From: Patescibacteria group bacterium
GTDB lineage: Bacteria; Patescibacteriota; Saccharimonadia; UBA4664; SCTI01
Direction: 5' to 3'
Assembly (NCBI GenBank): GCA_004297735.1
Contig: SCTI01000002.1
Location: 160 to 64,159 of the forward strand
DNA length: 64,000 nucleotides
Every line of letters starts with the position of its first letter. Within the stretch, counting starts at the first letter, position 1. Shown in pieces: positions 18,195-64,000 of the stretch. The notes under the pieces were generated by a model. The model was not told the origin of the DNA, ran no database searches, and saw only the letters and a program-made list of their open reading frames with translations. The position numbers and the translations under genes are program-made.

Positions 18195-19517
18195 CTAGTG
18201 CATCGCCGCGGTCACCGTGGTGGTGGTCCCCGGTGTGTCCGAGTCGGTGATGACGACCGCGGAGTCGAACGACCCGGGTGTCCCGGGCGTCTCGGCCTTG
18301 ACGTCGGTGTTACCCGTCGTCGTGACCGTGCCGCCGGTGCCGGTCGCGGTAGCCGTGATCGTCACCATGCCCGCGACCGAAGTCGCCCACATGGTCACCC
18401 GGTAGCACTTGGTGCCGGTCGGGCACGGTGTGCCATCCCAGCGGTACGGAACCGAGATCTTGCCGGCAAACCAGGCCGACGCGTTGCCGCTGGTGATGAC
18501 CGCGTCACCGCTGGCGCCTTCACCCGAAGCCTCGTAGTAAACCTGGCAGTTGCCAGTCACGAAGATGTGGGCGCAGGTCGTCAGCTGGATCGACGGCGGT
18601 GGAATCACCGGCGGAGGCGGCGTGACCGGGGGCGGCGGCGGAGGCGGAACCTCCTTCTTGCAGATATCCCCGTTCACCGTCACGTAGTTGCCGTTGCCGA
18701 CCACCACGATGCTGCACTCCGCAACGATCACGAAGCACTGCTGGATCTGCGAGTTCCACACGTGGTTCTGCTCGGCCTTGCACTGCTGCTCAGCCGAAAC
18801 CACCTGGCCGGGGGTTGCGGTTGGCGGGACCTCAGCCGTCGGCGGGATCTTGCGAACCAGCCGCCTCTTGACCGACTTGACCTTCTTGACGAAGGCCCGG
18901 ACATACGTCTTGCACTTCTGCCACTTCTTGCCGGCCACCACGTTACGGCAGTAGGCCTTCATGAAGGGGCGATACGAGACGCACTCCTTGTACTTCTGGT
19001 GGTAGGTGGTGCTCGTCTCGATCGTCTCGTCGACGTACACCTCCGTCTCACCGGTCGCGTCGTTGTGCACGAACTGCTCCGGCGAGATCGAGATGACCTT
19101 GCTGGTGGGCTTCCCCACCGGCTTCGGCTTCCCGACCCGCTTCTTGCTCGTCGACCGAACGGCCAGCACACCCATGTGGGAATGCCGGTAGTTGCCGTCG
19201 AATGTCGAGTAGACGCCCCCGCTGCACGAGGTGTTGAACGACAGCGTGTAGCCGCCCGGGGTGGTCGTGAAGACCACCTTCGGCGACTGCAGGAACGCCA
19301 TGACCGACTGGTCCTGGTGCATGTAGCCCTGCTCGATGAGCTTGCGCTTCATCGAAGGCAGGAACTTCTTGCCCGCCGGCGTCTTGTAATACGCGACGGC
19401 GCCGGCCTTCGAGGTGAAGCCCGGACCGCAGTACGCCTGGGCCGGCGCGGCGGCGCCGAACGACATCAGGATCGCCGCCACCACGGCGGCGATCGACAGC
19501 ATGACCTTGCGGAACAT
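18195..19517 (-). CDS. Hypothetical secreted Cys-rich protein with poly-Pro linker and Thr/Gly-rich C-terminus; high-G+C xenolog
   Basis: Start chosen at MFRKVMLSIAAVVAAILMSFGAAAPAQA (signal peptide) preceded by GGAGGT; ORF track extends to 19781 in frame; PPPPPPPVTPPPPVIPPPS linker; G/C-rich third positions. Confidence 0.55.
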   Translation of the reverse strand: MFRKVMLSIAAVVAAILMSFGAAAPAQAYCGPGFTSKAGAVAYYKTPAGKKFLPSMKRKLIEQGYMHQDQSVMAFLQSPKVVFTTTPGGYTLSFNTSCSGGVYSTFDGNYRHSHMGVLAVRSTSKKRVGKPKPVGKPTSKVISISPEQFVHNDATGETEVYVDETIETSTTYHQKYKECVSYRPFMKAYCRNVVAGKKWQKCKTYVRAFVKKVKSVKRRLVRKIPPTAEVPPTATPGQVVSAEQQCKAEQNHVWNSQIQQCFVIVAECSIVVVGNGNYVTVNGDICKKEVPPPPPPPVTPPPPVIPPPSIQLTTCAHIFVTGNCQVYYEASGEGASGDAVITSGNASAWFAGKISVPYRWDGTPCPTGTKCYRVTMWATSVAGMVTITATATGTGGTVTTTGNTDVKAETPGTPGSFDSAVVITDSDTPGTTTTVTAAMH

Positions 19518-19883
19518 GGTGACCTCCAGGGTCGTGGGACGGATGAACTTGATGAATCGGCTGACGAACTTGTCAGCCGTCTGGCGGGTGAGGTGCACGT
19601 TGGGCATGACCCCTCCTTTCGGATGGCTGACAAGACTACCGCGTAGCCCAACTACGCGGTTACGGTGATGTGTACCGAAACCTGGGAATATATCGTGGGC
19701 GGCACAAATATATTCCCAGAGTACGGCACACAGCCTAATCGCGTAGAGGACTGTGCAAATGTCTAGTTCTATAGGTATCAAGGGTCTTGATGACCCATGA
19801 CTATCTAGCTTGTCAATGTCCCCTCATCTGAACCAGTTCGGTTGATTTCTCCACCTCACCTCTGTTCTTCAGAGTGAATATAA

Positions 19884-52222: not shown

Positions 52223-52467
52223 TAAGTTCTATTATACGCGGTAAGCCGGGTCAACAAAATCTACCAAGACCCTGGTGGAACTGTTGGGGCGCCTCTCTAA
52301 CCCAGATTCTGGCAGATAGCAGTTTTACACGCTATTTGCAGGGTGGGCATTTGACTATCGGATGGCGCTTTGCGCATGCTGAAGACCCACCGATCGGTGG
52401 GTCCCGAGGTCCACTGGCAAGGGGACGCGGGGCAACGTACTACAACCCCGCAAAGGAGGTGGAGTAC

Positions 52468-52653
52468 ATGGGAAAGCCAAAGTTCGACACCCAGTCGAAC
52501 AACTCGAATGCGTGGGTCGGTGTCCGCGAAGGTCAGGACAGATCATCCGGCAAGACGCATACCGAGATCATCGTGCATGACAAGAGCAACAACGATCACG
52601 CTCACGTCGGCATCGATAAGAGCGGCAATCAGATATATCGCCGTGATCGCTAA
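52468..52653 (+). CDS. Hypothetical small polar protein (61 aa)
   Basis: SD AAAGGAGGTG 7 nt before ATG (MGKPKFDTQSNNS...); GC hairpin after stop. Confidence 0.45.
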   Translation: MGKPKFDTQSNNSNAWVGVREGQDRSSGKTHTEIIVHDKSNNDHAHVGIDKSGNQIYRRDR

Positions 52654-52699
52654 ATAGCGACACCGAGGCCCTTCCGGCCTCGGGCCGGGAGGGCCTCAT

Positions 52700-53026
52700 C
52701 TATACGCGGCGCGTCAGGCCATCCTCGCGAGCTACTCCCTCACCGAACGCCGATGCAATCGCGCTGTAGCGCGCGAGGAGCACCAGAGCGTTCGCAATCT
52801 CGCCATGCTCAGCCGGTACGAGAAACTCTCGCATCCACGCTGAGTTCGGAGTCGCAGCCATTATGTCCGCGAGCACAGCAGCCTCTTCGGGATCTGCTGC
52901 CGCCCAACGATCACGAATCAGCTTCGAAGCTTGATCGATCGATCGGTCATCGAAGTCGTCCTCGTCGAAGCGACGGCGCATTTCATCGCGCAGCTCGACC
53001 AAGTCTTGTAATTCACTGTTACCCAT
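52700..53026 (-). CDS. Hypothetical acidic protein (108 aa), islet cargo
   Basis: ORF with G/C-rich third positions; divergent from recombinase gene. Confidence 0.45.
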   Translation of the reverse strand: MGNSELQDLVELRDEMRRRFDEDDFDDRSIDQASKLIRDRWAAADPEEAAVLADIMAATPNSAWMREFLVPAEHGEIANALVLLARYSAIASAFGEGVAREDGLTRRV

Positions 53027-53268
53027 GGCTTTATTGTCGAACAGGCCAGCGACTCATGCAAGCACGAGCGTGTCCAATCGCCCGTCCGATCGCGTCAGAG
53101 TGCTCGCTCCTGAACTTCCCGCATTCAGGCGCTTTCCGCTCGATTAAGGCCTAGGACTATCTAGGGCCCTTTGCCCTCCCTTACTACAAACGCCTCCAGA
53201 TCTGGCAAAATACGTATTGGCTTAACTACTGATACGAGCTAAGATCCTTAACGAAAGGAGGTGCACAT

Positions 53269-55002
53269 ATGAGTGAAAGTGATAAAACTGTGACTCTCGC
53301 TCAAGCGCCCAAGAAGGCGCTGGTGTATCTCCGTGTGTCCTCGGCCCAGCAGGCCGAGACCGACTACGACGTTGAGGGCTTCTCGATCCCAGCTCAGCGC
53401 GAGGCCTGCAGGCGCCGTGCCGCGGAGCTAGAAGCTGAGGTCGAAGCAGACTTCGTCGATCGCGGCGAGTCGGCCAGAAGCGCTGACCGCCCAGCCCTGC
53501 AACGGATGCTGGCCAGGCTTGAAGCCGGCGGCATCGATTACGTCATCGTCCACAAGCTGGATCGACTGGCGCGTAACCGGGCCGACGACGTCGAGATCGC
53601 GATGCGGATCAAGGCAGGCGGTGCGGTGCTGGTCTCCGTCACCGAGAACATCGATGAGACGCCATCCGGGATGTTGGTTCACGGAATCATGTCCTCGATC
53701 GCCGAGTTCTATAGCCGCAACCTGGCCTCAGAGATCGTCAAAGGCTCCCGGCAGAAGGCCAAGAACGGCGGCACGCTGACCCGGGCGCCCATTGGGTACC
53801 TGAACGTGCGCGAGTTCGTAGATGGCCGCGAGATCCGCACTATCGGTATCGACGAGGAACGAGCGCCGTACGTGCAGCTGGCGTTCGAGCTCTACGCCAC
53901 CGGCAACTACTCGCTGTCGCAGCTCTCCACGCTGCTCGAACACCAGGGGCTGCGTTCCCGGGCTACTCGCCGGCGGCCGAGCGTCCCGGTCACGGCCAGC
54001 AAGCTTCAGGCGATTCTGCGCAACCCGTACTACAAGGGCATCGTCTCCTACCAAGGCGAGAGCTTCCCCGGTCGGCATCAGCCGCTCGTTGACGACGATC
54101 TGTTTGAGCGAGTCGGCCAAGTCCTCTCCGGCAAGAAGCTCAGTGGCGAGCGGGACCGCAAGCACCGTCACTACCTCAAGGGCTCGCTCTACTGCGGCGA
54201 GTGCGGCCGCCGTCTGACGTTCAGTCGCAACACCGGCAATGGTGGCTCCTACGACTACTTCGTCTGCAGTGGCAAGCAGCGCAAGACCTGCAGCCAGGGA
54301 TATCTGCGCACCGATCACATCGAGGCTGAGGTCGAGAAGCTCTACGCGACAGTCCAGCTGACGACCAAGCAGCGCGCAGAGATCCGCCGCCTGGTTGAGA
54401 CACACCTCGATGCCATGCGGGCGGTGACCGACGCCGAAGCCAACAAAGCCACGGCTGAGATCACAAAGCTGCTGCGCGAAGAACGCAAGCTGCTTGAGCT
54501 GTACTACGCAGACCTCGTGAGCCGCGAGGCCTACGCCGAAGAGACCAAGCGGATTGCCGACGGCAAGCGGGCCGCCCAGCGACGTATTGACGAAGCTTCA
54601 GGAACTACACAGGAGCTACTCGAGGCACTCAACCGTGCGCTGGAGATGACAACCAACGCGCACAAGACCTACCTGATGTCCGACTTCACCGGACGCCGCC
54701 TAATGAACCAAATGTTCTTCAAGCGGATCGAGGTCAAGGCCGACGAGATCGATGACGTCAAGCTCTCCGACCCCTACGCCCAGCTACTGGCCCAGGACCT
54801 GCTGGCAGAAGCCGAGGAAGCCGCCAGAGAGGCCGCCGCTACCGGCGTCTGGGAGGCCCCGGAACTTCAGGCCGAACCGGCCACAGGGCCCGGAAACCAA
54901 AGAACCCTCGGCCTTTCTTTGGCCGAGGGTTCCATTAGTACTGCTGTCATGGAGCTGTGGGGATTCGAACCCCAAGCACGAAGATTATCGGTCCTTTGCT
55001 AG
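53269..55002 (+). CDS. Large serine recombinase (resolvase/invertase N-domain + recombinase domain + zinc ribbon + coiled coil)
   Basis: LVYLRVSSAQQ catalytic-Ser motif; CGECGRRL...C..C zinc ribbon; 577 aa; last about 17 codons read into the tRNA-like target sequence; SD AAAGGAGGTG. Confidence 0.85.
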   Translation: MSESDKTVTLAQAPKKALVYLRVSSAQQAETDYDVEGFSIPAQREACRRRAAELEAEVEADFVDRGESARSADRPALQRMLARLEAGGIDYVIVHKLDRLARNRADDVEIAMRIKAGGAVLVSVTENIDETPSGMLVHGIMSSIAEFYSRNLASEIVKGSRQKAKNGGTLTRAPIGYLNVREFVDGREIRTIGIDEERAPYVQLAFELYATGNYSLSQLSTLLEHQGLRSRATRRRPSVPVTASKLQAILRNPYYKGIVSYQGESFPGRHQPLVDDDLFERVGQVLSGKKLSGERDRKHRHYLKGSLYCGECGRRLTFSRNTGNGGSYDYFVCSGKQRKTCSQGYLRTDHIEAEVEKLYATVQLTTKQRAEIRRLVETHLDAMRAVTDAEANKATAEITKLLREERKLLELYYADLVSREAYAEETKRIADGKRAAQRRIDEASGTTQELLEALNRALEMTTNAHKTYLMSDFTGRRLMNQMFFKRIEVKADEIDDVKLSDPYAQLLAQDLLAEAEEAAREAAATGVWEAPELQAEPATGPGNQRTLGLSLAEGSISTAVMELWGFEPQARRLSVLC

Positions 55003-55016
55003 ACCAACTCAGCCCC
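54950..55016 (-). ncRNA. Truncated tRNA-Ala/tmRNA-TLD-like mini-gene (paralog of 40081-40152), 3' CCA region replaced by islet
   Basis: minus sense GGGGCTG-AGTTGGTCTAGCAAAGGACCGATAATCTTCGTGCT-TGGGG-TTCGAAT-CCCCA-CAGCTCC-A; G3:U70; body and T-arm homologous to the 40.08-kb copy. Confidence 0.45.
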
Positions 55017-55144
55017 GCGTAAAAGCCATTGCTACCACCAAGGCATTTACAGTATTTCAAACAGTTATTAACAAAAAATTATCGATTTGACATGGAATGC
55101 AAAAATGTTAATCTATATCTGTACGAGGATTATCGGTCCTACCT

Positions 55145-55173
55145 AAAAAACCGGCCATCATGGCCGGTTTTTT
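55145..55173. terminator. Bidirectional intrinsic terminator (AAAAAACCGGCCA-tca-TGGCCGGTTTTTT)
   Basis: 3' of ileS on minus strand and 3' of islet on plus strand. Confidence 0.75.
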
Positions 55174-55185
55174 AGTGCCTATTTT

Positions 55186-58137
55186 TTAGCTCTTCTTCAA
55201 CGAGATTATCAGCTCTTCCCCATCAACTTTGGTGTGCTGCGTATCCTCAAAGTGATCCGAACCGCTCGTCACCTTCTCCGCCAAAACCTCTTGGGCAATT
55301 GTCGCCTGATGCTCTTTGAGGGCCTCGCTGAGATCTTTTGCTTCACCGACTACGTCAAAGTTGAGCTCGATTCGGTCATCAACTTGGAGACCAGCCCGTT
55401 TACGCAAGTTCTGAACATGGCGAACCACATCGCGCATGATGCCCTCGCGCTTGAGTTCGGGAGTGATAGTGGTGTTAATCTCTACACCTGATTTGTACTC
55501 ACCAGACGCCCTCTCGAACTTGACCTCCTTAACGTTCAGCTCTTCTTTAGCGATATTTAATAAACTTTCTTCCAATGGATCTGTCCACTGCAGCGTAGCC
55601 ATACTGAGTGGCTGACGAACCTTGATACCCGTGCCTCTTGCCCTGAGCTCGAGCCCCTGGGTAATGAGCCTTCGTAGAACGGTCATGCGTTCTAATAAAT
55701 CCTCATCAATCTCCCCGGTCTCCGGCCAGTCGCTCAGATGAACCGAAGCTGGAACGTCCATACCGGCAGTCAGCTCGCGCCACAGCTTATCGGACACAAA
55801 TGGACTCCACGGCGCCAGTAGCTGCGCGATTCGCGCCATGGCGTAATGCAGCGTGGCGTAGGCGGCCTGCTTGTCGCCATCATCCTCACTCTTCCAAAAG
55901 CGGCGGCGACTGCGGCGCACGTACCAGTTAGACAGATCATCGATCAGCTCGCGAATTGGACGGGTCGCCTTAGCGATTTGGTAGGCATCGGCCTGCTTGG
56001 TCGATTCGGCAATGGTTTGGTTGAGGCGAGCGAGTAGCCACTGGTCCAAAATGTTGTCGCTGTCTGGCTGGGTTAGAGTTTTTGGCGGCTGCCAGTTGTC
56101 TACCTCGGCGTAGGTACTAAAGAAGCTATACACGTTCCAGAGTCGAAGGAAAACGTTGCGCGCGGTCTCCTGCACGGCCTCGGACGAAAAACGAACATCC
56201 TCACCGGCCACAACCGGGCTCGACATCAAGAAGAAGCGCAGACTATCGGCACCCTGCGTACTAAAGAGCTCGGCTGGATCGGGGTAATTTTTTAATCGTT
56301 TACTCAGCTTTTTGCCATCGGCGGCCAGGACGAGCCCGTTCACGACCACGTTTTTATAGGCCGGCTTATCCATTAGGGCGGTCCCGAGTACGTGTAGGGT
56401 GTAGAACCAGCCGCGAGTCTGGTCCAGACCTTCGGCAATAAACTCAGCCGGGAAGGCCTTGGCGAAGCCATCTTTATGCTCAAACGGATAGTGATCCTGG
56501 GCGTATGGCATCGCCCCGCTCTCAAACCAACAGTCAAACACCTCTTCGGTGCGTTTGTAGGTTTTACCATCGCGTTTAATAACGATTTCATCAATGCCGG
56601 GACGGTGCAGATCAAACTCTTTATCGTGGCCACTGAGCTCACGGAGTTCGTCGAGACTACTAATGACGATGATGTCCTCAGTATCCTCCACGTTCACCCA
56701 AATTGGTAGCGGCGCGCCCCAGAACCGGTTGCGGCTAAAGTTCCAGTCACGCGCGTCGGCCAGCCAGTTACCAAAGCGACCTTGTTTAATGTGATCTGGC
56801 ACCCAGTTAACCTGGTTGTTGTTGGCGACCAGTTTTTCGCGCAGATCGGTTACCTTAATAAACCAGCTTGGAGTCGCAAAGTACATCAGCGGAGTCTCAC
56901 AGCGCCAGCAGAACGGGTAGGTGTGCTCAAAGGTTTCGGCGGCGAAGATGCGGCCCTTGGCGGTCAGGTCGGCGATAATGTGTGGGTCGGCGTCCTTAAA
57001 GAAGGTGCCAACGATTGATTCCAGGCCGTCAACTTGCTTGAGAGCTTCAACCATGACGCCAAATCCGTCCACGCTTTCGATGAGCGGCAGATTTTCGCGC
57101 TTACCAAGCTCTAGGTCGGTCTCGCCATAGCGCGGCGCGACATGGAGGACCCCGGTGCCGTCTTCAAGGCTAACCGAGTCATCGGCGTAGACTTGATGCG
57201 CATTATTAAGCTGGGCTTCGTCGGTTACTGCGAGCTTATACAGCGGCAGATACCGCTTGCCCACCAAATCGCTTCCTTTGTGCTCTGCGACCACCTTGTA
57301 GTCGGCTTTGCGCAGCTCCAGCTCGCTTAGGCGCTTCTTAGCCAAGATGAGTCGCTCGCCTCGCTTCCACTCCTCACCTTCACCCGAATTGGTCAGCTCA
57401 ACCGTGACGTATTCAGCTTTTACGTCAACCGCCAGAGCAGCGTTAGCTGGCAATGTCCACGGCGTAGTGGTCCAGGCAAGCAGCGAGGTGTTTTCATCAT
57501 CTTTTAATTGGAACTTAACGTAAACGCTGGGGTCGGGCACGTTATCTTTGTAGTTTTGATTAACCTCAAAGTTACTTAAGGTGGTGGCGCAACGCGGACA
57601 GTACGGGCTAGAACGAAAACCGCGGTAAACCAATCCTTTTTCGTGCAGCTGACTCAACACCCACCAGACGCTTTCAATGTAGTTATCGTCCAGGGTGGCA
57701 TAGGAGTTTTCTTGATCGCTCCAGCGACCCAGGCGAGTCATAAACTCTTCCCACTCATTCTTATACTTAAAGACGCTGGCGCGGGCAGCTTCATTAAACT
57801 TATCTACACCAAGCTCCAGAATCTGGCGCTTGCTGGTTATGCCTAGCTGTTTTTCAACCTCATTTTCAACCGGTAAACCATGGGTGTCCCAGCCGTTGCG
57901 GCGCGGGACATAGTAGCCGCGCATGGTTTTATAGCGGGTGATTGAATCTTTTTCGGTCAGAGCCACCACGTGACCATAGTGCGGCAAGCCGTTGGCAAAT
58001 GGCGGGCCGTCATAAAAGCTGAATCGATCGCTGCCCTGACGCTGCTCAACGCTTTGTTCGAAGGTTTTTTCATCCTTCCAAGTCTTGAGCATCTCGGCTT
58101 CGAAGGCGGGAAAGTCGGCTGGCTGGGCTTTTTTCAT
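55186..58137 (-). CDS. ileS: Isoleucine--tRNA ligase (type 2, eukaryote-like)
   Basis: 983 aa; GPPFANGLPHYGH (HIGH) and KLSKR (KMSKS-like); size and N-terminus typical of type-2 IleRS. Confidence 0.9.
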   Translation of the reverse strand: MKKAQPADFPAFEAEMLKTWKDEKTFEQSVEQRQGSDRFSFYDGPPFANGLPHYGHVVALTEKDSITRYKTMRGYYVPRRNGWDTHGLPVENEVEKQLGITSKRQILELGVDKFNEAARASVFKYKNEWEEFMTRLGRWSDQENSYATLDDNYIESVWWVLSQLHEKGLVYRGFRSSPYCPRCATTLSNFEVNQNYKDNVPDPSVYVKFQLKDDENTSLLAWTTTPWTLPANAALAVDVKAEYVTVELTNSGEGEEWKRGERLILAKKRLSELELRKADYKVVAEHKGSDLVGKRYLPLYKLAVTDEAQLNNAHQVYADDSVSLEDGTGVLHVAPRYGETDLELGKRENLPLIESVDGFGVMVEALKQVDGLESIVGTFFKDADPHIIADLTAKGRIFAAETFEHTYPFCWRCETPLMYFATPSWFIKVTDLREKLVANNNQVNWVPDHIKQGRFGNWLADARDWNFSRNRFWGAPLPIWVNVEDTEDIIVISSLDELRELSGHDKEFDLHRPGIDEIVIKRDGKTYKRTEEVFDCWFESGAMPYAQDHYPFEHKDGFAKAFPAEFIAEGLDQTRGWFYTLHVLGTALMDKPAYKNVVVNGLVLAADGKKLSKRLKNYPDPAELFSTQGADSLRFFLMSSPVVAGEDVRFSSEAVQETARNVFLRLWNVYSFFSTYAEVDNWQPPKTLTQPDSDNILDQWLLARLNQTIAESTKQADAYQIAKATRPIRELIDDLSNWYVRRSRRRFWKSEDDGDKQAAYATLHYAMARIAQLLAPWSPFVSDKLWRELTAGMDVPASVHLSDWPETGEIDEDLLERMTVLRRLITQGLELRARGTGIKVRQPLSMATLQWTDPLEESLLNIAKEELNVKEVKFERASGEYKSGVEINTTITPELKREGIMRDVVRHVQNLRKRAGLQVDDRIELNFDVVGEAKDLSEALKEHQATIAQEVLAEKVTSGSDHFEDTQHTKVDGEELIISLKKS

Positions 58138-58420
58138 GGGGTCTCCTGTAGGTCCGACCTAGCAAAGGGTCGGACCTCTTATCTAGTGGGTAATCTTTTG
58201 TTAATCTAGCTTATTCGAGAAAGGTCGGACCCTTTGCTAGGTCGGACCCTAAACACACAAAACCTCTCGTCGGCAGGAGTCCAATGTGGACGGTTCCATC
58301 CTGCTTCCCGAGAGGGCACTTAATTCGCACTTTTTACGCCGTACTCGCGTCTGGTTCTACTTGGTCTAAACCGTTCTTCCAGCTGCTTCGCGGGTGATAA
58401 CCGCTCATGAACCGAGGTTC
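58138..58420 (-). promoter_or_regulatory. ileS leader: T-box riboswitch candidate of the ultrashort-Stem-I type plus 26-bp inverted repeat next to the SD
   Basis: minus sense: GCGG-UUAUCAC-CCGC hairpin with AUC(A) in terminal loop; antiterminator-like GCAGGA-[UGGAACC]-GUCCA-cau-UGGAC-UCCUGC (rc of 58273-58304); then 25/26-bp IR 58151-58176 vs 58223-58248 ending 13 nt before AGGAGA SD. Confidence 0.5.
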
Positions 58421-58460
58421 AATGCATGTGTAATTGTACCCTTACAATACCGGTATTTTA

Positions 58461-58721
58461 TCAGCCTAGCAAGCTGTTGGCGCCCTGGACCAACAGCTGC
58501 ATTAGCAAAAAAGCGACCAGCGGAGCAAAATCAATCATCTGTGTCTTTGGCAGAATCATCCGAATTGGTATTAATACTGGCTCGGTTAAATCAACCAATA
58601 GCGCGCCAAAACCGCCCTTGGGGTTTGGGTCGATCCAGCTCATTAATACGCGCGCCAATAAAACGATATTAAAAATAAAGACAAATAAATTAATAAAATT
58701 TAAAGAAAACTCGGCTAGCAT
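58461..58721 (-). CDS. yggT: YggT (YlmG/Ycf19) family membrane protein
   Basis: 86 aa, two TM helices, typical YggT sequence; precedes ileS as in Gram-positive division clusters. Confidence 0.75.
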   Translation of the reverse strand: MLAEFSLNFINLFVFIFNIVLLARVLMSWIDPNPKGGFGALLVDLTEPVLIPIRMILPKTQMIDFAPLVAFLLMQLLVQGANSLLG

Positions 58722-58725
58722 TGGC

Positions 58726-59070
58726 TTATAAACCGCCTCGGTAGGCGTCGGCCACTCGCTGTGGAGCCGGTAGCTCGCTCTCCCATTTTGCGGTCAAGGA
58801 GCCATCGCCATCGGTCACTAGTATCGCCGGTCGCTGCATTACCCCATACAGCTCGGCCAAAGCGATGCCGTCGCGGCTGTCCGCGTCAAGCAAATCAACC
58901 GTAATACCCTCTTCACGCTCAAGTTTGCGCACCAAGTAGTCAATGTGGCGATCAGCCGGGGTACTTTTAGTAAACAGCAACGTAACTTTCATGCTTACAA
59001 GTATACCAAATATAAAAGCGCTTTCGCGCCCCGAGTCATTTGTGACCCGAGGCGCTAACCAGTAGCTCAT
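58726..59070 (-). CDS. Hypothetical protein with thioredoxin/glutaredoxin-like fold lacking CxxC (alternative start MKVTLLF at 58992)
   Basis: Strong SD GGAGGAAT before ATG at 59070 overlapping upstream stop (ATGA coupling); MKVTLLFTKSTPAD..ITVDLLDADSRDGIALAELYGVMQRPAILVTDGDG resembles Grx beta-alpha-beta-alpha pattern without cysteines. Confidence 0.4.
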   Translation of the reverse strand: MSYWLAPRVTNDSGRESAFIFGILVSMKVTLLFTKSTPADRHIDYLVRKLEREEGITVDLLDADSRDGIALAELYGVMQRPAILVTDGDGSLTAKWESELPAPQRVADAYRGGL

Positions 59071-59357
59071 GCCAGGGATTCCTCCGGCGGCTCAACGTCG
59101 CAAACACCCCTCAACCAGAGCTCGGTATCGAGCTGGTGCGCGAAGCGCTTGAGGCTGAGATTGCGCCCAACCTTGACGTCAACCGAGACGGAGGTCGAAA
59201 AGTCTCTACCCTCGCCAAAGCGCTCAAGCGCTCGGCGATCCTCCGGGCTGATGTATTCTGGTCCACCTATTCCAGAGTGGTCCAGGCGAACCAGCAACTT
59301 GCAGGCAGATAAGGCTGATTTGACGGTCAGGCGATACGTGGGCGGCTCCTTAAGCAT
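59067..59357 (-). CDS. Hypothetical protein (96 aa), GC-rich
   Basis: SD GAGGAGGAG before ATG (MLKEPPTYRL...); translationally coupled to downstream ORF. Confidence 0.4.
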   Translation of the reverse strand: MLKEPPTYRLTVKSALSACKLLVRLDHSGIGGPEYISPEDRRALERFGEGRDFSTSVSVDVKVGRNLSLKRFAHQLDTELWLRGVCDVEPPEESLA

Positions 59358-59764
59358 TACTCCTCCTCGCAATTGGTGACCCAACAAAAAAGAGTCCGCT
59401 TGGACTCCCTACTGCGTTTGCTTGTGCGTTTAAGCTACGATGAAGTCCGAGGTTGATGGCCAAGCATCAGCAGGCCGCTCACGACGAGCAGGACTACGGT
59501 GACGAGACTGTTACCAACGGTCTTCATACGGCTTAGACTACGCCTCCAATTTAATGATGTCAACAGATTAAGATAAGAAAGTTTCGGACCGGGCCCGACG
59601 CCTTCCCTTTGCAGAGAAAGTGTCGGAACCCAGCCCGTGTCTGCCCTCGGCCGTCAACCGAAGGCTAGATGTAGATCACTATCCTTTCCACCCCTGGTCG
59701 TGATCAAAATACCAAGGGATAACCTCGCCGACGGGATGCCGGCAAGACTGCTGCGACGGACGAC

Positions 59765-62700
59765 CTAGCTGCAGCCGGCGGTGCTGCCACAGCTATTGCA
59801 GACGGGGCAAGGCCCACCCTTGCGAACCATCAAGCCACCGCAATCGGAACAGATGCCCGCCACGGACAGGCCGAGGTAGGTAAGCGGCTGCTCCGCAGGC
59901 GAATCCGGCTTGCTACCGTCACCGGTTGTCGAAACAGCAAGCTCCTGCTGAGCTGCCTCCGCGTACTCGACCGGAGTCGACCCACCGGCATCCTCAGCCA
60001 TCTTGCGCTTGCGCACCTCAGGCGTCAAGATGCCGAGCTCCTCCTGGACATCCGTATCCAGGAAGCGGCTGGCCAGCCAGCGCATGATGTAGTCCGGCAG
60101 ACTCTTGGCGAACGGGATCTCGATGTTCTCGGTGATCCCTTCCGGCTCGAATCGCACGAAGCTGAACTTCTCCACCAGCGTCTCAAGCGGCACCCCGTAC
60201 TGGAGCGCGATCGAGATCGCCGTGGCGAAGGAGTTCATCATGCCCTTGAGCGCTGAGCCTTCCTTGCCGAGACCGTTGATGAAGATCTCTCCCATCGTCC
60301 CGTCCTCGTACATACCGGCCACAATGTAGCCTTCGTGACCTCCGAGGACGAACTTGTGAGTGATCGACTTGCGCTCCCGCGGCATCCTCCGGCGAGCCGG
60401 TGTGCCGCGAGCGATCTCGACGAGGATCAGGGTGATCATCTCCGACTCGTCCGCCGTCAGGACCTTGCGGTCACCAATGAGGGACTCGTAGAGATCGCCG
60501 ACTGCCTTGAGTGTGGGCACGCCCTTGATCAGGGCATGCTCGAACACCTCGCACAAGGCCTCGACCGCCGCGCGCTGGATCGGCTCGCCGAGCTCAACGC
60601 CCGACTCGCCCTTACCCATCTGCGCGTCCGTGCGCAGCGCCTGGGCGGTCTTGGACCCATCGCGGTAGATGGCCAGAGCCTTGACGCCGAGGCGCCAGGC
60701 CTGGGTGTACGCGTCAGCGATGTCCTCGACGGTGGTCTCCTGCGGCATGTTGACCGTCTTGGAGATCGCACCGCTGATGAACGGCTGAACCGCACCCATC
60801 ATCTTGATGTGGCCCATGTGGCTGATCGCCCGCTCGCCGACCGCGACATCGAACACCGGCAGGTGCTTCGGGTCGAGACCCGGAGCGCCGATGATCGTGC
60901 CGTGCTCGGTGATGTACTCCTCGATGACCTCGATCTTCTGGTCGTTGTACCCGAGGGTACGCAGAGCCAGCGGAACCGTCCGGTTAGGGATGGTCATCTG
61001 ACCGCCACCAACCAGCTCCTTGAACTTGACCAGCGAGAAGTCCGGCTCGACGCCGGTGGTGTCGCAGTCCATCAGGAACGAGATCGTCCCCGTCGGTGCG
61101 AGCACCGTGGCCTGCGCGTTGCGGTAGCCGTGCTGCTCGCCGAGCGTGACCGCCTGATGCCAGGCAAGGCGCGCCTCGGCCAGCAGATCCATGTCACGAA
61201 TGTGACCATCCGGGATCTGCTGTGCGGCGTCATGGTGCATCCGCATCACCTTGTTGTGCGGCTCGCGGTTATCGGCGTACCTGTCGTACGGACCGATGGC
61301 CGCCGCGATCTTGGCCGACTGAGCGTAAGCCCGACCGGTCATGAGCGCGGTGATGGCCGCCGCCGTTGCCCGACCCTTGTCGGAGTCGTACGGCATGCCG
61401 TTGGCCATCAGGTAGGCACCGAGGTTGGCGTACCCCAGGCCGAGCTGACGGAACGCTCGCGCGTTATCACCGATCTCCTCCGTCGGGTAGGACGAAGGGC
61501 CAACGATGATCTCCTGCGCCAGGAACACGATGTCCACCGCTTGCTTGAAGCGCTCGGTGTCGAACGTGCCATCCTCACGCCGGAACTTCATCAGGTTCAG
61601 CGAGGCCAGGTTGCAGGCCGAGTCATCGACATGCATGTACTCGCTGCACGGGTTCGAGGCGTTGATGCGCCCCGAGTTCGGATCGGTGTGCCACTGGTTG
61701 ATGGTGGTGTCGTACTGCACGCCAGGGTCGGCACAGCGCCAGGCCGCCTCCGCGATGTCTCGCATCAGGTCCCGAGCCGGAATCGGATCGCCGACCGGAT
61801 CCCCGGTCTTGCGAGCGATCAGGTGCCAGTCCTCGTCGTTCTCGACCGCCTGCATGAACTCGTCCGACACGCGGACCGAGTTGTTGGCGTTCTGGTACTG
61901 AACGTGCCTGAAGCCGCGACCGTCGATGGACATGTCGAAGCCCTTTTCCTGCAGAGCCCCGGCCACCTCTTCGGCCTCGACCTTACACCAGATGAACTCC
62001 CGGATGTCCGGGTGGTCCACGTCCAGCACTACCATCTTGGCCGCCCGACGTGTCTTGCCGCCGGACTTGATGGTGCCGGCCCAGGAGTCGGCGCCACGCA
62101 TGAACGACACCGGTCCGCTGGCCGTGCCGCCCTTGCTCAGCGGCTCCATCGAACCGCGGATCGCCGACAGGTTGATGCCGGAACCGGAGCCGCCGCGGAA
62201 GATCTTACCCTCCCGCGTGTTCCAGTCCAGGATCGAATCCATCGTGTCCTCGACACTCAGGATGAAGCAGGCCGAGCACTGCGGGTTCTCTTCGAACCCG
62301 ACGTTGAACCAGACCGGGCTGTTGAAAGCCGCCGCCTGGTCCAGCAGCAGGAAGAGCAGCTCGTCGTAGAAGATCGAGGCCGGGTGATCGGGCTCCTGCT
62401 CACGCAGAACCTCGATCTTCCCCCGCCCAGGACCGAAGTAGCCCCTGGCCATACCCCACTGGGTGATGGTCTTGGCAACCCGGCCGGTCATCTGCCTGAC
62501 CGAGCGCTCACGCGTCGGTGAGCCCAGCTGTCCGCGGAAGTACTTCTGCGCCACGATGTTGGTGGCGTTCTGGCTCCACAACTTCGGGAACTCGACGTCC
62601 TTCTGCTCGAACGCGACCTTGTCGCCGTGACCGATGCGCGCGTCACGGGTCTCCCAGTCGACGGTGTCGAACGGGTGCACGCCCTCCTTGGTGAAGTAGC

Positions 62701-62782
62701 GCGTGATCTTGAGAGGCTTGCTAGCTACGCCGTTATGGGGCGCCGCCAGCGTCTGCTGACCTTCGGTTTCGGTCGATGCCAT
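59765..62782 (-). CDS. nrdJ: Ribonucleoside-diphosphate/triphosphate reductase class II (adenosylcobalamin-dependent), high-G+C xenolog
   Basis: 1005 aa; class II RNR core; C-terminal Cys-rich zinc ribbon CSDCGGLMVRKGGPCPVCNSCGSTAGCS; G/C-rich third positions unlike adjacent nrdR. Confidence 0.85.
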   Translation of the reverse strand: MASTETEGQQTLAAPHNGVASKPLKITRYFTKEGVHPFDTVDWETRDARIGHGDKVAFEQKDVEFPKLWSQNATNIVAQKYFRGQLGSPTRERSVRQMTGRVAKTITQWGMARGYFGPGRGKIEVLREQEPDHPASIFYDELLFLLLDQAAAFNSPVWFNVGFEENPQCSACFILSVEDTMDSILDWNTREGKIFRGGSGSGINLSAIRGSMEPLSKGGTASGPVSFMRGADSWAGTIKSGGKTRRAAKMVVLDVDHPDIREFIWCKVEAEEVAGALQEKGFDMSIDGRGFRHVQYQNANNSVRVSDEFMQAVENDEDWHLIARKTGDPVGDPIPARDLMRDIAEAAWRCADPGVQYDTTINQWHTDPNSGRINASNPCSEYMHVDDSACNLASLNLMKFRREDGTFDTERFKQAVDIVFLAQEIIVGPSSYPTEEIGDNARAFRQLGLGYANLGAYLMANGMPYDSDKGRATAAAITALMTGRAYAQSAKIAAAIGPYDRYADNREPHNKVMRMHHDAAQQIPDGHIRDMDLLAEARLAWHQAVTLGEQHGYRNAQATVLAPTGTISFLMDCDTTGVEPDFSLVKFKELVGGGQMTIPNRTVPLALRTLGYNDQKIEVIEEYITEHGTIIGAPGLDPKHLPVFDVAVGERAISHMGHIKMMGAVQPFISGAISKTVNMPQETTVEDIADAYTQAWRLGVKALAIYRDGSKTAQALRTDAQMGKGESGVELGEPIQRAAVEALCEVFEHALIKGVPTLKAVGDLYESLIGDRKVLTADESEMITLILVEIARGTPARRRMPRERKSITHKFVLGGHEGYIVAGMYEDGTMGEIFINGLGKEGSALKGMMNSFATAISIALQYGVPLETLVEKFSFVRFEPEGITENIEIPFAKSLPDYIMRWLASRFLDTDVQEELGILTPEVRKRKMAEDAGGSTPVEYAEAAQQELAVSTTGDGSKPDSPAEQPLTYLGLSVAGICSDCGGLMVRKGGPCPVCNSCGSTAGCS

Positions 62783-62936
62783 TGAGCATCTTCCCCTTTC
62801 TGCCTACAGGCAGTCGTTGATAGGCTGCCTGGCGGCAGTACTACGTAGTTGGCTTGTCAAAGACCTTTCGGATACAAACGTACTGTTAGATACCCGTGAG
62901 ATGGCTGCGCGAAGCAGCTACCACACGGACCCCCAA

Positions 62937-63401
62937 CTATCTTTTTAATGGACGGCGCTTTAGTCTAGCCAGTTCGGCTTCAAACGACTCCACATCGGTA
63001 AAGGAGCGATACACGCTAGCAAAGCGGACATAAGCCACGTCATCAAGCTCCAGCAAGTGATCCATGGCCAGCTCGCCAATTCGCTCCACCGACACCTCCG
63101 GCTCCCCCAGCGAACGAAGTTCACGCTCAATCTGGTTGATGGTTTCCTCAAGCTGCGAAGCGGCAACCGGACGCTTTTCGCAAGCCCGGTACAGCCCGCC
63201 AGCCAGCTTTTGACGATCAAATGGCTCACGGCGGCCGTCCTTCTTTATAATGGTCAGTCGAGGCTGTTCGGTTCGTTCGTAGGTGGTAAAACGAAAGCTA
63301 CACTTTAGACACTGACGCCGACGGCGGATTTGAGCGCCGTCCTCTAAGTCGCGCGACTCAATCACCTTAGAATCTAAGTAACCACAATCTGGGCATCTCA
63401 T
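62937..63401 (-). CDS. nrdR: Transcriptional repressor NrdR
   Basis: MRCPDCGYLDSKVIESR zinc ribbon + ATP-cone; 154 aa; native G+C. Confidence 0.9.
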   Translation of the reverse strand: MRCPDCGYLDSKVIESRDLEDGAQIRRRRQCLKCSFRFTTYERTEQPRLTIIKKDGRREPFDRQKLAGGLYRACEKRPVAASQLEETINQIERELRSLGEPEVSVERIGELAMDHLLELDDVAYVRFASVYRSFTDVESFEAELARLKRRPLKR

Positions 63402-63605
63402 ACCGAAACAGTCTCCCCTACACCGATTTAAAATGAGCGATTAACACCACCCTTGGTGTATTATTCTTGTGCTTACTCCATATCTAGCGTAAGCACTATC
63501 TACTATAACGCTTGTGCTCCTATGGATGTCAATCTTGATTTTAGGTATAAATGTTAGGTAAATAATTTTGACCTAGGTTCACTTCGCGTGAACCAGGTCC
63601 ACAGT

Positions 63606-64000
63606 CTAGTGCTTGCGGCGGCGGATGAAGGCCGGTACATCCAGGTCGTCATCGCTAACTCGACCGGTAACCGCGCCGGCGGCTCGCTGGATTAGCGAAC
63701 GAGCACCCTTTTTAGCAGGCTCGGGCGAAGCGCTGGGCTTGGCGGTCTTTTTTGGCTCATCATTAAATAGATCGTGGTCGTCATCGTCGTGATCAGCTGG
63801 GGTGGCCTCGTCTTCCGGCTCAATTGAGCTAACGGTGGGCTGAGGTTTCTTGGCAAACAGGTCATCTTCATCAGCCGTGCTGTCGGCCGAATCGATCGAA
63901 GCTGAGCTGGTTTGTTCATCAATAAAAGGCTTGGCGGCAAACCGATGGGCCACCGGCTGTGGTTCTGGCTCCGGCTCATCAACCTTAATATCGATGGCGG
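63606..64000 (-). CDS. ftsZ: Cell division protein FtsZ, C-terminal part (gene continues beyond window edge)
   Basis: Acidic disordered linker ending in conserved C-terminal peptide DDLDVPAFIRRRKH; frame stays open to position 64000 (track M is a GTG). Confidence 0.6.
   Translation of the reverse strand, partial: AIDIKVDEPEPEPQPVAHRFAAKPFIDEQTSSASIDSADSTADEDDLFAKKPQPTVSSIEPEDEATPADHDDDDHDLFNDEPKKTAKPSASPEPAKKGARSLIQRAAGAVTGRVSDDDLDVPAFIRRRKH

Follow-up and report, generated by a model that had tools for sequence, protein, structure and literature searches.

In Streptomyces and other Actinomycetota, the genes of the repressor NrdR and of a class II ribonucleotide reductase (RNR), NrdJ, form the nrdRJ operon, in which NrdR controls its own expression by means of tandem NrdR boxes. 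The fate of acquired genes is described by the Lawrence-Ochman model of amelioration, and a hypothesis of GC-biased gene conversion has been put forward for bacteria as well. The taxonomic distribution of RNRs suggests, according to the part of the source cited here, extensive horizontal gene transfer (HGT) (PMC6459318), and a C-terminal cysteine-rich zinc-finger domain is attributed, in the cited passage of another work, to most class II RNRs (PMC5704485). In this report we describe the nrdR-nrdJ locus of a genome of the Saccharimonadales (Patescibacteria). It is located on a 64-kb stretch of contig SCTI01000002.1 (53.4% GC overall), which at its full length is referred to as the window. At this locus a native nrdR gene is followed by an nrdJ gene of actinobacterial type, whose donor-like codon usage has been kept in a whole group of related lineages.

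The genes of the locus are encoded on the minus strand, in the order: ftsZ 3' end, nrdR, nrdJ, a stretch of ~700 nt with small open reading frames (ORFs), an 88-aa ORF, yggT and ileS (55186-58137). Its reference points are as follows (GC3 denotes the G+C fraction at third codon positions):

62937-63401, minus strand: nrdR, native repressor gene, product with Zn-ribbon and ATP-cone (PF22811 + PF03477), GC3 0.555
59765-62782, minus strand: nrdJ, 1005 aa, class II RNR of Solirubrobacterales type with TSCPD domain and Cys-rich C-terminal tail, GC3 0.858
58461-58721, minus strand: yggT, native (Pfam PF02325), syntenic in all relatives, anchoring the conserved order at its downstream side

The nrdJ product is a predicted adenosylcobalamin-dependent (class II) RNR. 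It matches the Pfam families Ribonuc_red_2_N (PF08471), Ribonuc_red_lgC (PF02867) and TSCPD (PF12637), as well as NCBIfam NF005122 over residues 5-1005 (1333.7 bits, cut-off 859) and TIGR02504 (594.6 bits, cut-off 399.95). Among solved structures, 7B9P and 7B9Q come closest. The active-site stretch NPCSEY aligns with that of solved class II RNRs, SNPCSEYM being kept in comparison with 7B9P (E = 2.6e-165), and the Thermotoga NrdJ structure 1XJE is matched with E = 1.3e-53.

The composition of nrdJ was compared with that of 51 backbone genes of the window (GC3 mean 0.582, sd 0.045). With a GC content of 0.640 and a GC3 lying 6.2 standard deviations above this mean (z = 6.2), nrdJ is clearly foreign-looking, while nrdR is backbone-like (z = -0.6); both had been noticed in an earlier account of this DNA made from its letters alone (hereafter the sequence-only reading). 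That account also counted the 3' untranslated region (UTR) and two small ORFs downstream of nrdJ to a G+C-rich block, which our data contradict. The 100-nt GC profile goes up where the nrdJ coding sequence (CDS) is entered and down where it is left, the nrdR-nrdJ spacer has 54% GC, and the 377 nt between 59388 and 59764 have 54% GC as well, i.e. they are backbone-like. The ORF 58726-59070 has a GC3 of 0.57 (0.60 from its conserved start, z = 0.3), and only the ORF 59067-59357 shows a marginal rise (GC3 0.68, z = 2.2), which does not make it part of a foreign block. All three small ORFs of the region, including one of 30 aa described below, are native in composition, and the foreign segment is the nrdJ CDS alone.

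The codon usage of nrdJ is opposite to that of the native genes and copies that of L166 (protein P0006), the Solirubrobacteraceae nrdJ used here as the actinobacterial reference. Phe is encoded by TTC in 37/37 cases (20% in the pooled window genes; rpsB 1/7, tsf 0/8), Ile by ATC in 56/60 (30% in the pooled window genes) and Lys by AAG in 44/44, as compared with 65% in the pooled native genes. A 728-aa ORF antisense to nrdJ (60335-62521, plus strand) was considered as a source of synonymous constraint and rejected, being presumably the usual by-product of a GC3-rich frame; it is not regarded as a gene.

Apart from the window's own protein, which like its NrdR is entered at NCBI under "Patescibacteria group bacterium", the best NrdJ matches were two proteins with 76% identity, encoded by the loci L001 and L003, followed by proteins of Solirubrobacteraceae metagenome-assembled genomes (MAGs) with ~72%; among 5.8 billion database sequences no protein other than its own was more than 76% identical to it. 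Outside the syntenic Saccharimonadales loci described below, the nearest relatives belong to Solirubrobacteraceae, Baekduia and Conexibacter. The 80 nearest loci found in JGI metagenomes were all located on contigs of 59-76% GC, with nrdJ GC3 mostly of 0.9-0.98. On the contig of L166 (71% GC), which is truly actinobacterial in context, nrdJ is accompanied by SDR, flavin monooxygenase, TetR and chloride-channel genes. In a neighbour-joining (NJ) tree, the only type of tree built (185 sequences, 916 conserved columns), NrdJ falls within the Solirubrobacterales radiation, the proteins of the window, L001/L003, L084 and L167 being grouped with the Solirubrobacteraceae proteins P0005/6/7/12 with 91% bootstrap support. 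One further member of the family deserves mention: the nrdJ of L145 (Ga0214923_10020995), located on a contig of 59% GC, has a GC3 of only 0.71, yet uses TTC for 36/37 Phe codons. It may represent another recipient lineage or, within the donor group, a member of lower GC.

NrdR, IleS and the gene order, on the other hand, are those of Saccharimonadales. NrdR (197.6 bits against TIGR00244, cut-off 124.65) has its nearest relatives among the syntenic Saccharimonadales proteins, with 68-92% identity, compared with 44-49% to NrdR proteins encoded next to actinobacterial nrdJ. Such a neighbour was present in only 3/80 of the sampled Solirubrobacterales-type loci, which argues that the adjacency of the two genes was not inherited from the donor. 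When genome contigs were searched with NrdR, the matches listed came mostly from unrelated phyla, and the only close one among them (71%) was that of L004, whose contig ends just past nrdR. These results support the proposal of the sequence-only reading that the RNR came from a high-G+C donor beside a native regulator. Clustering of NrdJ with the lineage's own relatives, named there as an outcome that would speak against transfer, does occur, but only in a trivial sense, since these relatives carry the same foreign-type gene.

The Saccharimonadales sequences compared, all of them metagenome assemblies, represent five lineages: the window, L001/L003 (a JGI contig of 282 kb and a Logan contig, respectively), L167, L084 and L085 (GCA_035479795.1, labelled Candidatus Saccharimonadales). 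They contain six nrdJ genes, L001 and L003 being counted separately. The gene order of L001 and L003 is ftsA-ftsZ-nrdR-nrdJ-small ORFs-yggT-ileS-ftsW-rplU, and the same order was found in L167 (NrdR 89% identical to that of the window), L084 (82%), L085 (NrdR 68%, IleS 72%) and one further JGI contig (NrdR 78%). As nrdR-nrdJ is thus placed inside a conserved order, between ftsZ and yggT in all five lineages, it did not recently disrupt the ftsZ-yggT-ileS arrangement, as had been supposed. Patchy presence among the relatives was not seen, nrdJ occupying the same slot in every lineage. Its GC3 in L001/L003, L167, L084 and L085 is 0.883, 0.882, 0.833, 0.842 and 0.867 (in this order), compared with ~0.4-0.65 for the backbone genes of these loci, so that nrdJ alone is GC3-rich in each of them. 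Since this anomaly is common to the whole group of relatives, high GC3 is no sign of recent acquisition here: the acquisition of nrdJ goes back to an ancestor that several Saccharimonadales lineages have in common, and is neither recent nor private. No mobility gene was found beside nrdJ; a serine recombinase gene (53269-55002) located beyond ileS belongs to a separate insertion.

Sequence comparisons of the nrdJ genes point to common ancestry. Over 893 conserved codons, the amino acid identity of the Saccharimonadales NrdJ proteins to L166 (0.80-0.85) is higher than among themselves (0.77-0.81). At four-fold degenerate sites, however, identity is 0.63-0.75 among the window, L001, L084 and L167 and 0.51-0.55 between them and L166, i.e. 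at or below the background of 0.55-0.62 observed between actinobacteria. This excess argues for common ancestry of the nrdJ genes of the four lineages, and the simplest reading would be a common ancestor followed by accelerated protein change in each lineage. The NrdJ proteins of the window and L001 have 30 otherwise rare residues in common, and a linker between barrel and TSCPD domain that is ~30 residues longer was found only in the window, L001 and L003.

The loss of donor-like codons is in progress in the four lineages for which changes were polarised. Synonymous changes in nrdJ from strong to weak and from weak to strong bases number 28:8 in the window, 46:5 in L167, 29:6 in L084 and 22:13 in L001, and the ratio ranges from 1.7 to 19:1 depending on lineage and outgroups, compared with ~1:1 in IleS of the window, L001 and L167. 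The strong-to-weak excess means that nrdJ is off equilibrium and decays towards native composition. The decay is slow: on the window branch ~5% of strong sites have changed in nrdJ versus ~13% in IleS, and all classes of synonymous change are ~two-fold below those of IleS.

How slow this is can be judged from the backbone, in which the strong/weak state of third positions is correlated between lineages with r of only 0.16 (window-L084) and 0.11 (window-L085). As calculated from these correlations, a neutral nrdJ that had a GC3 of 0.97 at the respective ancestors would be expected to have now no more than ~0.75. Of the codons for Phe, Tyr, Asn, Ile, Lys and Gln in the window nrdJ, 231/237 end in C or G; under generous neutral assumptions this fraction would be no higher than 0.83, even with an acquisition as late as the window-L001 ancestor (P about 2e-12). 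The retention is codon-specific: in all six Saccharimonadales nrdJ genes the shares of TTC, TAC, AAC, ATC, AAG and CAG amount to ~77-100% (mostly >85%), while those of GAC and CAC are down to 50-79%. The same pattern, in which GAT, CAT, GGT and GCT are tolerated, recurs in genes of the family that have a lower GC3, for instance those of L145 and L096. Donor codon usage has thus outlasted neutral expectation. Translational selection for TTC, ATC and AAG was considered as the cause and rejected, since in the native highly expressed genes rpsB, tsf, frr and rplU the preferred codons are TTT and ATT, and ordinary translational selection is therefore no explanation.

A possible cause emerges from the comparison of L001 with L003. 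Their backbones are ~96% identical at the nucleotide level, and their IleS and NrdR proteins 98.9% and 100%, respectively, yet the NrdJ proteins are only 92% identical, their differences being concentrated in two stretches of the gene. Between nt 346 and 602, L001 differs from L166 at 6/257 positions (97.7% identity) and from L003 at ~23, while in the flanks of this tract L001 and L003 have the same differences from L166. The longest exact match between L001 and L166 (125 nt) exceeds those of all 712 actinobacterial pairs with comparable overall identity that served as controls, and a triplet permutation test of the tract gave p = 5e-5. The GC3 of the tract is 0.966, as compared with 0.894 in codons 201-700 (p = 0.013). 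L003 contains an L167-like tract (nt 184-442, p = 2e-4), and a weaker L166-like tract is present in the window nrdJ (nt 760-1004, p = 0.0013, triplet permutation). These mosaics suggest patchwise recombination of nrdJ, with alleles of actinobacteria as well as between Saccharimonadales. Hitch-hiking of flanks in a recent transfer from one Saccharimonadales lineage to another was considered and rejected, the 3' UTR and the nrdR-nrdJ spacer being only 52-78% identical among lineages.

Based on these observations we suggest, with a probability of roughly 0.6, that the locus unites a native nrdR with an ancient Solirubrobacterales-type nrdJ whose decay has been slowed chiefly by patchwise recombination. 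The native nrdR with its tandem-box promoter and the box-free nrdJ behind it (see below) would form a two-gene unit for deoxyribonucleotide supply. The nrdJ CDS alone would have come from Actinomycetota of Solirubrobacterales type and have entered this slot in the ancestor of a group of Saccharimonadales lineages, after which the protein would have evolved fast in each of them. Its synonymous sites would drift towards native composition at least 2.5 times more slowly per site than the backbone, and hence donor-like codons would be met in all lineages. The brake would be repeated homologous recombination with actinobacterial alleles, possibly from host DNA, and with those of further Saccharimonadales, the tract of L001 being the instance observed directly; selection or GC-biased conversion acting on synonymous sites may contribute. 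Recombination is the most likely cause of the slow drift and, at the same time, the least secure step of the proposed mechanism.

Several observations weigh against this proposal. L085 falls outside the 91% NJ clade, and its NrdJ shares 67-69% identity with many Solirubrobacterales proteins and 60% with that of the window. One acquisition and several would therefore fit equally, and the L085 gene may stem from the same event or from a separate one. Only 2 residues are common to the other four lineages and rare in actinobacteria, which means that the shared stem was short and that protein support for a single origin is thin. As regards recombination, the L001 tract and the other mosaic tracts are possibly assembly chimeras, produced via shared k-mers or co-assembled nrdJ genes; L002 encodes the same NrdJ protein as L001, but the two may be assemblies of one sample. 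The GC3 of the window nrdJ is spatially homogeneous (dispersion test, p = 0.18) and none of its tracts is more than ~90% identical to any sampled actinobacterial gene, so that there is no sign of fresh import in the window genome. Four-fold sites are closer among Saccharimonadales than to any actinobacterium, as would be expected of vertical descent with synonymous sites under constraint rather than of frequent import from diverse donors. The linker specific to the window, L001 and L003 has a GC3 of 0.84-0.90, and no sampled actinobacterium could have donated it. Finally, co-transcription of the two genes and binding of NrdR, on which the regulatory part depends, are both inferred.

Several of these points speak for a single ancient acquisition with no later import, in which selection on mRNA or codons, or GC-biased gene conversion, would have preserved the codons, and the tracts would be artefacts or traces of exchange among Saccharimonadales only. 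We consider this a serious alternative, though less likely than the proposal above. It would explain why GC3 is homogeneous along the nrdJ genes of the window, L084, L167 and L085 and high even in the lineage-specific linker, why four-fold identity among Saccharimonadales exceeds that to any actinobacterium, why synonymous changes of every class are only about half as frequent as in IleS, and why one codon-specific pattern recurs in five lineages and in the lower-GC3 genes of L145 and L096. However, native highly expressed genes favour the opposite codons, the strong-to-weak excess does not correspond to a selected equilibrium, and the L001 tract is nearly identical to L166 and has a raised GC3. 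Moreover, we know of no mechanism of gene-specific GC3 selection in a symbiont with a small population.

The remaining explanations differ as to the direction, the age or the reality of the transfer. The position of the Solirubrobacteraceae proteins P0005/6/7/12 inside the NJ clade that holds the Saccharimonadales could be taken to indicate transfer from Saccharimonadales to Solirubrobacteraceae, or a native gene with intrinsically high GC3. Either is very unlikely, as this clade is embedded in a very large high-G+C radiation, the composition of the gene fits actinobacterial and not Saccharimonadales genomes, and substitutions in Saccharimonadales run from strong to weak. Furthermore, the actinobacterial proteins have short branches, the Saccharimonadales proteins being more similar to L166 than to each other. 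Even more improbable is a recent, private acquisition by the window genome, too young to have ameliorated: the GC3 and codons of nrdJ do look as fresh as those of the recombinase island (GC3 0.77), yet the same anomaly in the same slot is found in five lineages with near-saturated backbone synonymous sites. The rare residues and the linker insert that the window protein has in common with L001, and the absence from the databases of any protein more than 76% identical to it besides its own, are also at variance with a fresh import. That an actinobacterial nrdJ was misjoined into a Saccharimonadales contig during assembly or binning is the least likely of all. The gene is compositionally alien and all sequences are metagenomic, but the order is identical, with native flanks on both sides, in at least four samples or sources (NCBI MAGs, JGI, ENA, Logan), and the Saccharimonadales nrdJ genes are unlike every sampled actinobacterial gene and mutually similar at synonymous sites.

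Within the favoured interpretation, i.e. ancient acquisition followed by patchwise recombination, a more specific scenario can be considered. Cultivated Saccharibacteria live, as stated in the part of the source cited, on Actinobacteria (PMC10633639), which makes Solirubrobacterales a concrete host candidate for uncultured soil Saccharimonadales. One comparison of cultured pairs, in the section of that work drawn on here, gave no evidence of lateral transfer (PMC8406219). The nrdJ gene might owe its lasting actinobacterial character to ongoing patchwise conversion from the nrdJ of such likely hosts (Solirubrobacterales) by means of natural competence, the host genome serving as a repair template for this essential gene of a drift-prone epibiont. 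We put this forward as a speculation only, and consider it doubtful. If it were true, nrdJ would be a molecular marker of the hosts of uncultured soil Saccharimonadales.

The region upstream of nrdR and the leader of nrdJ contain the following elements:

63502-63532, minus strand: promoter-like site of the nrdR-nrdJ unit, putative in function, with TTGACA at 63532-63527, a 19-nt spacer and TATAGT at 63507-63502
63444-63490, minus strand: tandem NrdR-box-like 16-mers, ACGCTAGATATGGAGT at 63490-63475 and ACACCAAGGGTGGTGT at 63459-63444, 31 bp apart start to start and placed just 3' of the -10 element
62800-62839, minus strand: twin hairpins ACTGCCgccaGGCAG and ACTGCCtgtaGGCAG in the 5' leader of nrdJ, followed by the Shine-Dalgarno sequence AAAGGGG at 62799-62793

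Both TTGACA and TATAGT are kept in 6/6 aligned relatives. A consensus promoter scan of 58100-63700 did not detect any sigma-70 site; it missed the conserved promoter-like site of nrdR because of its 19-nt spacer. The two boxes and their spacing are kept in the window, L001, L003, L084 and L167, and the tandem pattern, which was derived from these same sequences, has one match in the 64-kb window and 0 in 100 shuffles. The NrdR box consensus, which we take to be acaCwAtATaTwGtgt, with tandem 16-bp palindromes ~31-32 bp apart at nrd promoters, is matched by box 1 in 12/16 positions. Box 2 has ACAC...GTGT arms and a G-rich centre; in the window it remains below the reporting threshold of 11/16, and its counterpart in L167 reaches 11/16. 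The sequence-only reading had recognised the palindrome ACACCAAGGGTGGTGT and misplaced it to 63453-63468, the correct position being 63444-63459. The second box which it proposed nearby, GCACTATCTACTATAACGC, covers the -10-like TATAGT and is not a box; the true partner is ACGCTAGATATGGAGT at 63475-63490.

It was right, on the other hand, in finding no convincing box directly upstream of nrdJ: no NrdR-box-like site was found there in the window or in five relatives. As nrdJ has no boxes of its own, it is most likely co-transcribed with nrdR and would be repressed via the nrdR promoter. The twin hairpins of the nrdJ leader are kept in the window, L001, L003 and L167; in L084 and L085 they are degenerate. 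They have the same stem (ACTGCC...GGCAG), are arranged back to back and show slight covariation in RNAalifold; alternative pairing between them could occur. They did not match any Rfam family, and Rfam at gathering thresholds gave no match in the whole window, hence no cobalamin or other riboswitch.

Downstream of nrdJ, the following features precede yggT:

59584-59598, minus strand: terminator-like hairpin (consensus scan), ~170 nt past the nrdJ stop codon
59435-59527, minus strand: 30-aa hydrophobic ORF MKTVGNSLVTVVLLVVSGLLMLGHQPRTSS, native-type, with its own promoter-like TTGACA
59389-59410, minus strand: intrinsic-terminator-like hairpin after the 30-aa ORF, nine-pair stem and T run, 89-95% identical among relatives
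59067-59357, minus strand: accessory ORF, 96 aa from ATG
58726-58992, minus strand: predicted 88-aa thioredoxin-fold protein, 4 nt upstream of yggT, conserved in five lineages

The stem of the hairpin 59584-59598 is kept in the window, L001 and L003, and counterparts are present in L167 and L084. The nucleotide sequence of the 30-aa ORF is 85-91% identical among the window, L001, L003 and L167, compared with 52-63% for the adjacent 3' UTR, and its product could be either a short membrane peptide or a small RNA. The accessory ORF has no family match in Pfam or NCBIfam; it occurs in the window, L001 and L167, and an unrelated ORF is found instead in L003. When L001 is compared with L003, two regions (L001 13334-13694 and 2063-2947) are only 55-80% identical. 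They include the accessory ORF 3' of nrdJ and small ORFs upstream of a HIT-family gene, and represent segments that are locally hypervariable or have been replaced.

According to an alignment of five lineages, the 88-aa ORF starts at the conserved Met 58992. The translational coupling which had been assumed for the two small ORFs is therefore doubtful, as the downstream one starts at this position and is spaced 4 nt from yggT. A single-sequence AlphaFold2 model of the protein has a predicted local distance difference test score of 83.6, and its top Foldseek matches are almost all thioredoxins or thioredoxin-fold proteins, with TM-scores mostly of 0.6-0.7. None of the 6/6 orthologs contains a cysteine, STPAD or a similar sequence occupying the position of CxxC; the protein is therefore not a redox-active thioredoxin or NrdH.

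Two further regions of the window attracted our attention. Between ftsW and ileS lies a stretch of ~3 kb (52230-55180) with the large serine recombinase CDS 53269-55002 (plus strand). The product contains Resolvase, Recombinase and Zn_ribbon_recom domains and is 25-27% identical to phage integrases, and the z value of the gene's GC3 is 4.2. As ileS is directly followed by ftsW in L001, L002, L084 and L085, the stretch looks like a recent insertion; no clear att-like repeats were found in its flanks. The second strongly foreign-looking gene of the window, 18195-19781 (minus strand), encodes a protein in which Cys, Pro and Thr are abundant; it has a signal peptide and a poly-Pro stretch and is predicted to be secreted. 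No Pfam or NCBIfam match was obtained for it. Its GC3 is 0.862 (z = 6.3) and its codons are actinobacterium-like (Phe TTC 14/15, Lys AAG 32/32). No tRNA genes were found in the window.

Transfer of an RNR gene is in itself ordinary and well known, and what is unusual in the present case is the persistence of donor codon usage. The locus is a clear example of a single essential CDS of actinobacterial type that occupies a native and conserved operon slot throughout a group of lineages of the candidate phyla radiation. In the literature library searched, we found no paper on nrdJ transfer into Saccharibacteria. The persistent donor codons also call for caution in the compositional detection of HGT, as high GC3 cannot be read as recent transfer. 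If the L001 tract is real, it would be direct evidence of ongoing DNA flow from host to epibiont.

When compared with the known systems, the locus resembles other RNR transfers in that an essential RNR of foreign phylogeny and composition is present in a native genome. It differs from them in that the CDS only is foreign, that it occupies a conserved native slot, that it is clade-wide and that its donor codons persist beyond neutral expectation; moreover, one relative carries a tract nearly identical to a present-day actinobacterial gene. The domain organization of NrdJ (Ribonuc_red_2_N, barrel and TSCPD, with NPCSEY and the tail CSDCGG...CPVCNSCGSTAGCS) is that of the zinc-finger-tailed class II RNRs, from which the protein is distinguished by its ~30-residue longer linker and by an identity of at most 76% outside its own lineage. 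As in the Lawrence-Ochman model of amelioration, nrdJ drifts hostward with a strong-to-weak excess. However, its drift is codon-specific and, per site, slower than that of backbone synonymous sites by a factor of at least 2.5, while the simple model would give a GC3 of at most ~0.75.

The arrangement of the locus is most similar to that of the Streptomyces nrdRJ operon: nrdR is placed directly upstream of a class II RNR gene and is preceded by two 16-bp box-like palindromes 31 bp apart, and nrdJ is box-free. Unlike in Streptomyces, the centres of the boxes are degenerate, with AGGG in place of an A/T-rich core, and the two genes are of different origin, nrdR being of Saccharimonadales type and nrdJ of Solirubrobacterales type.

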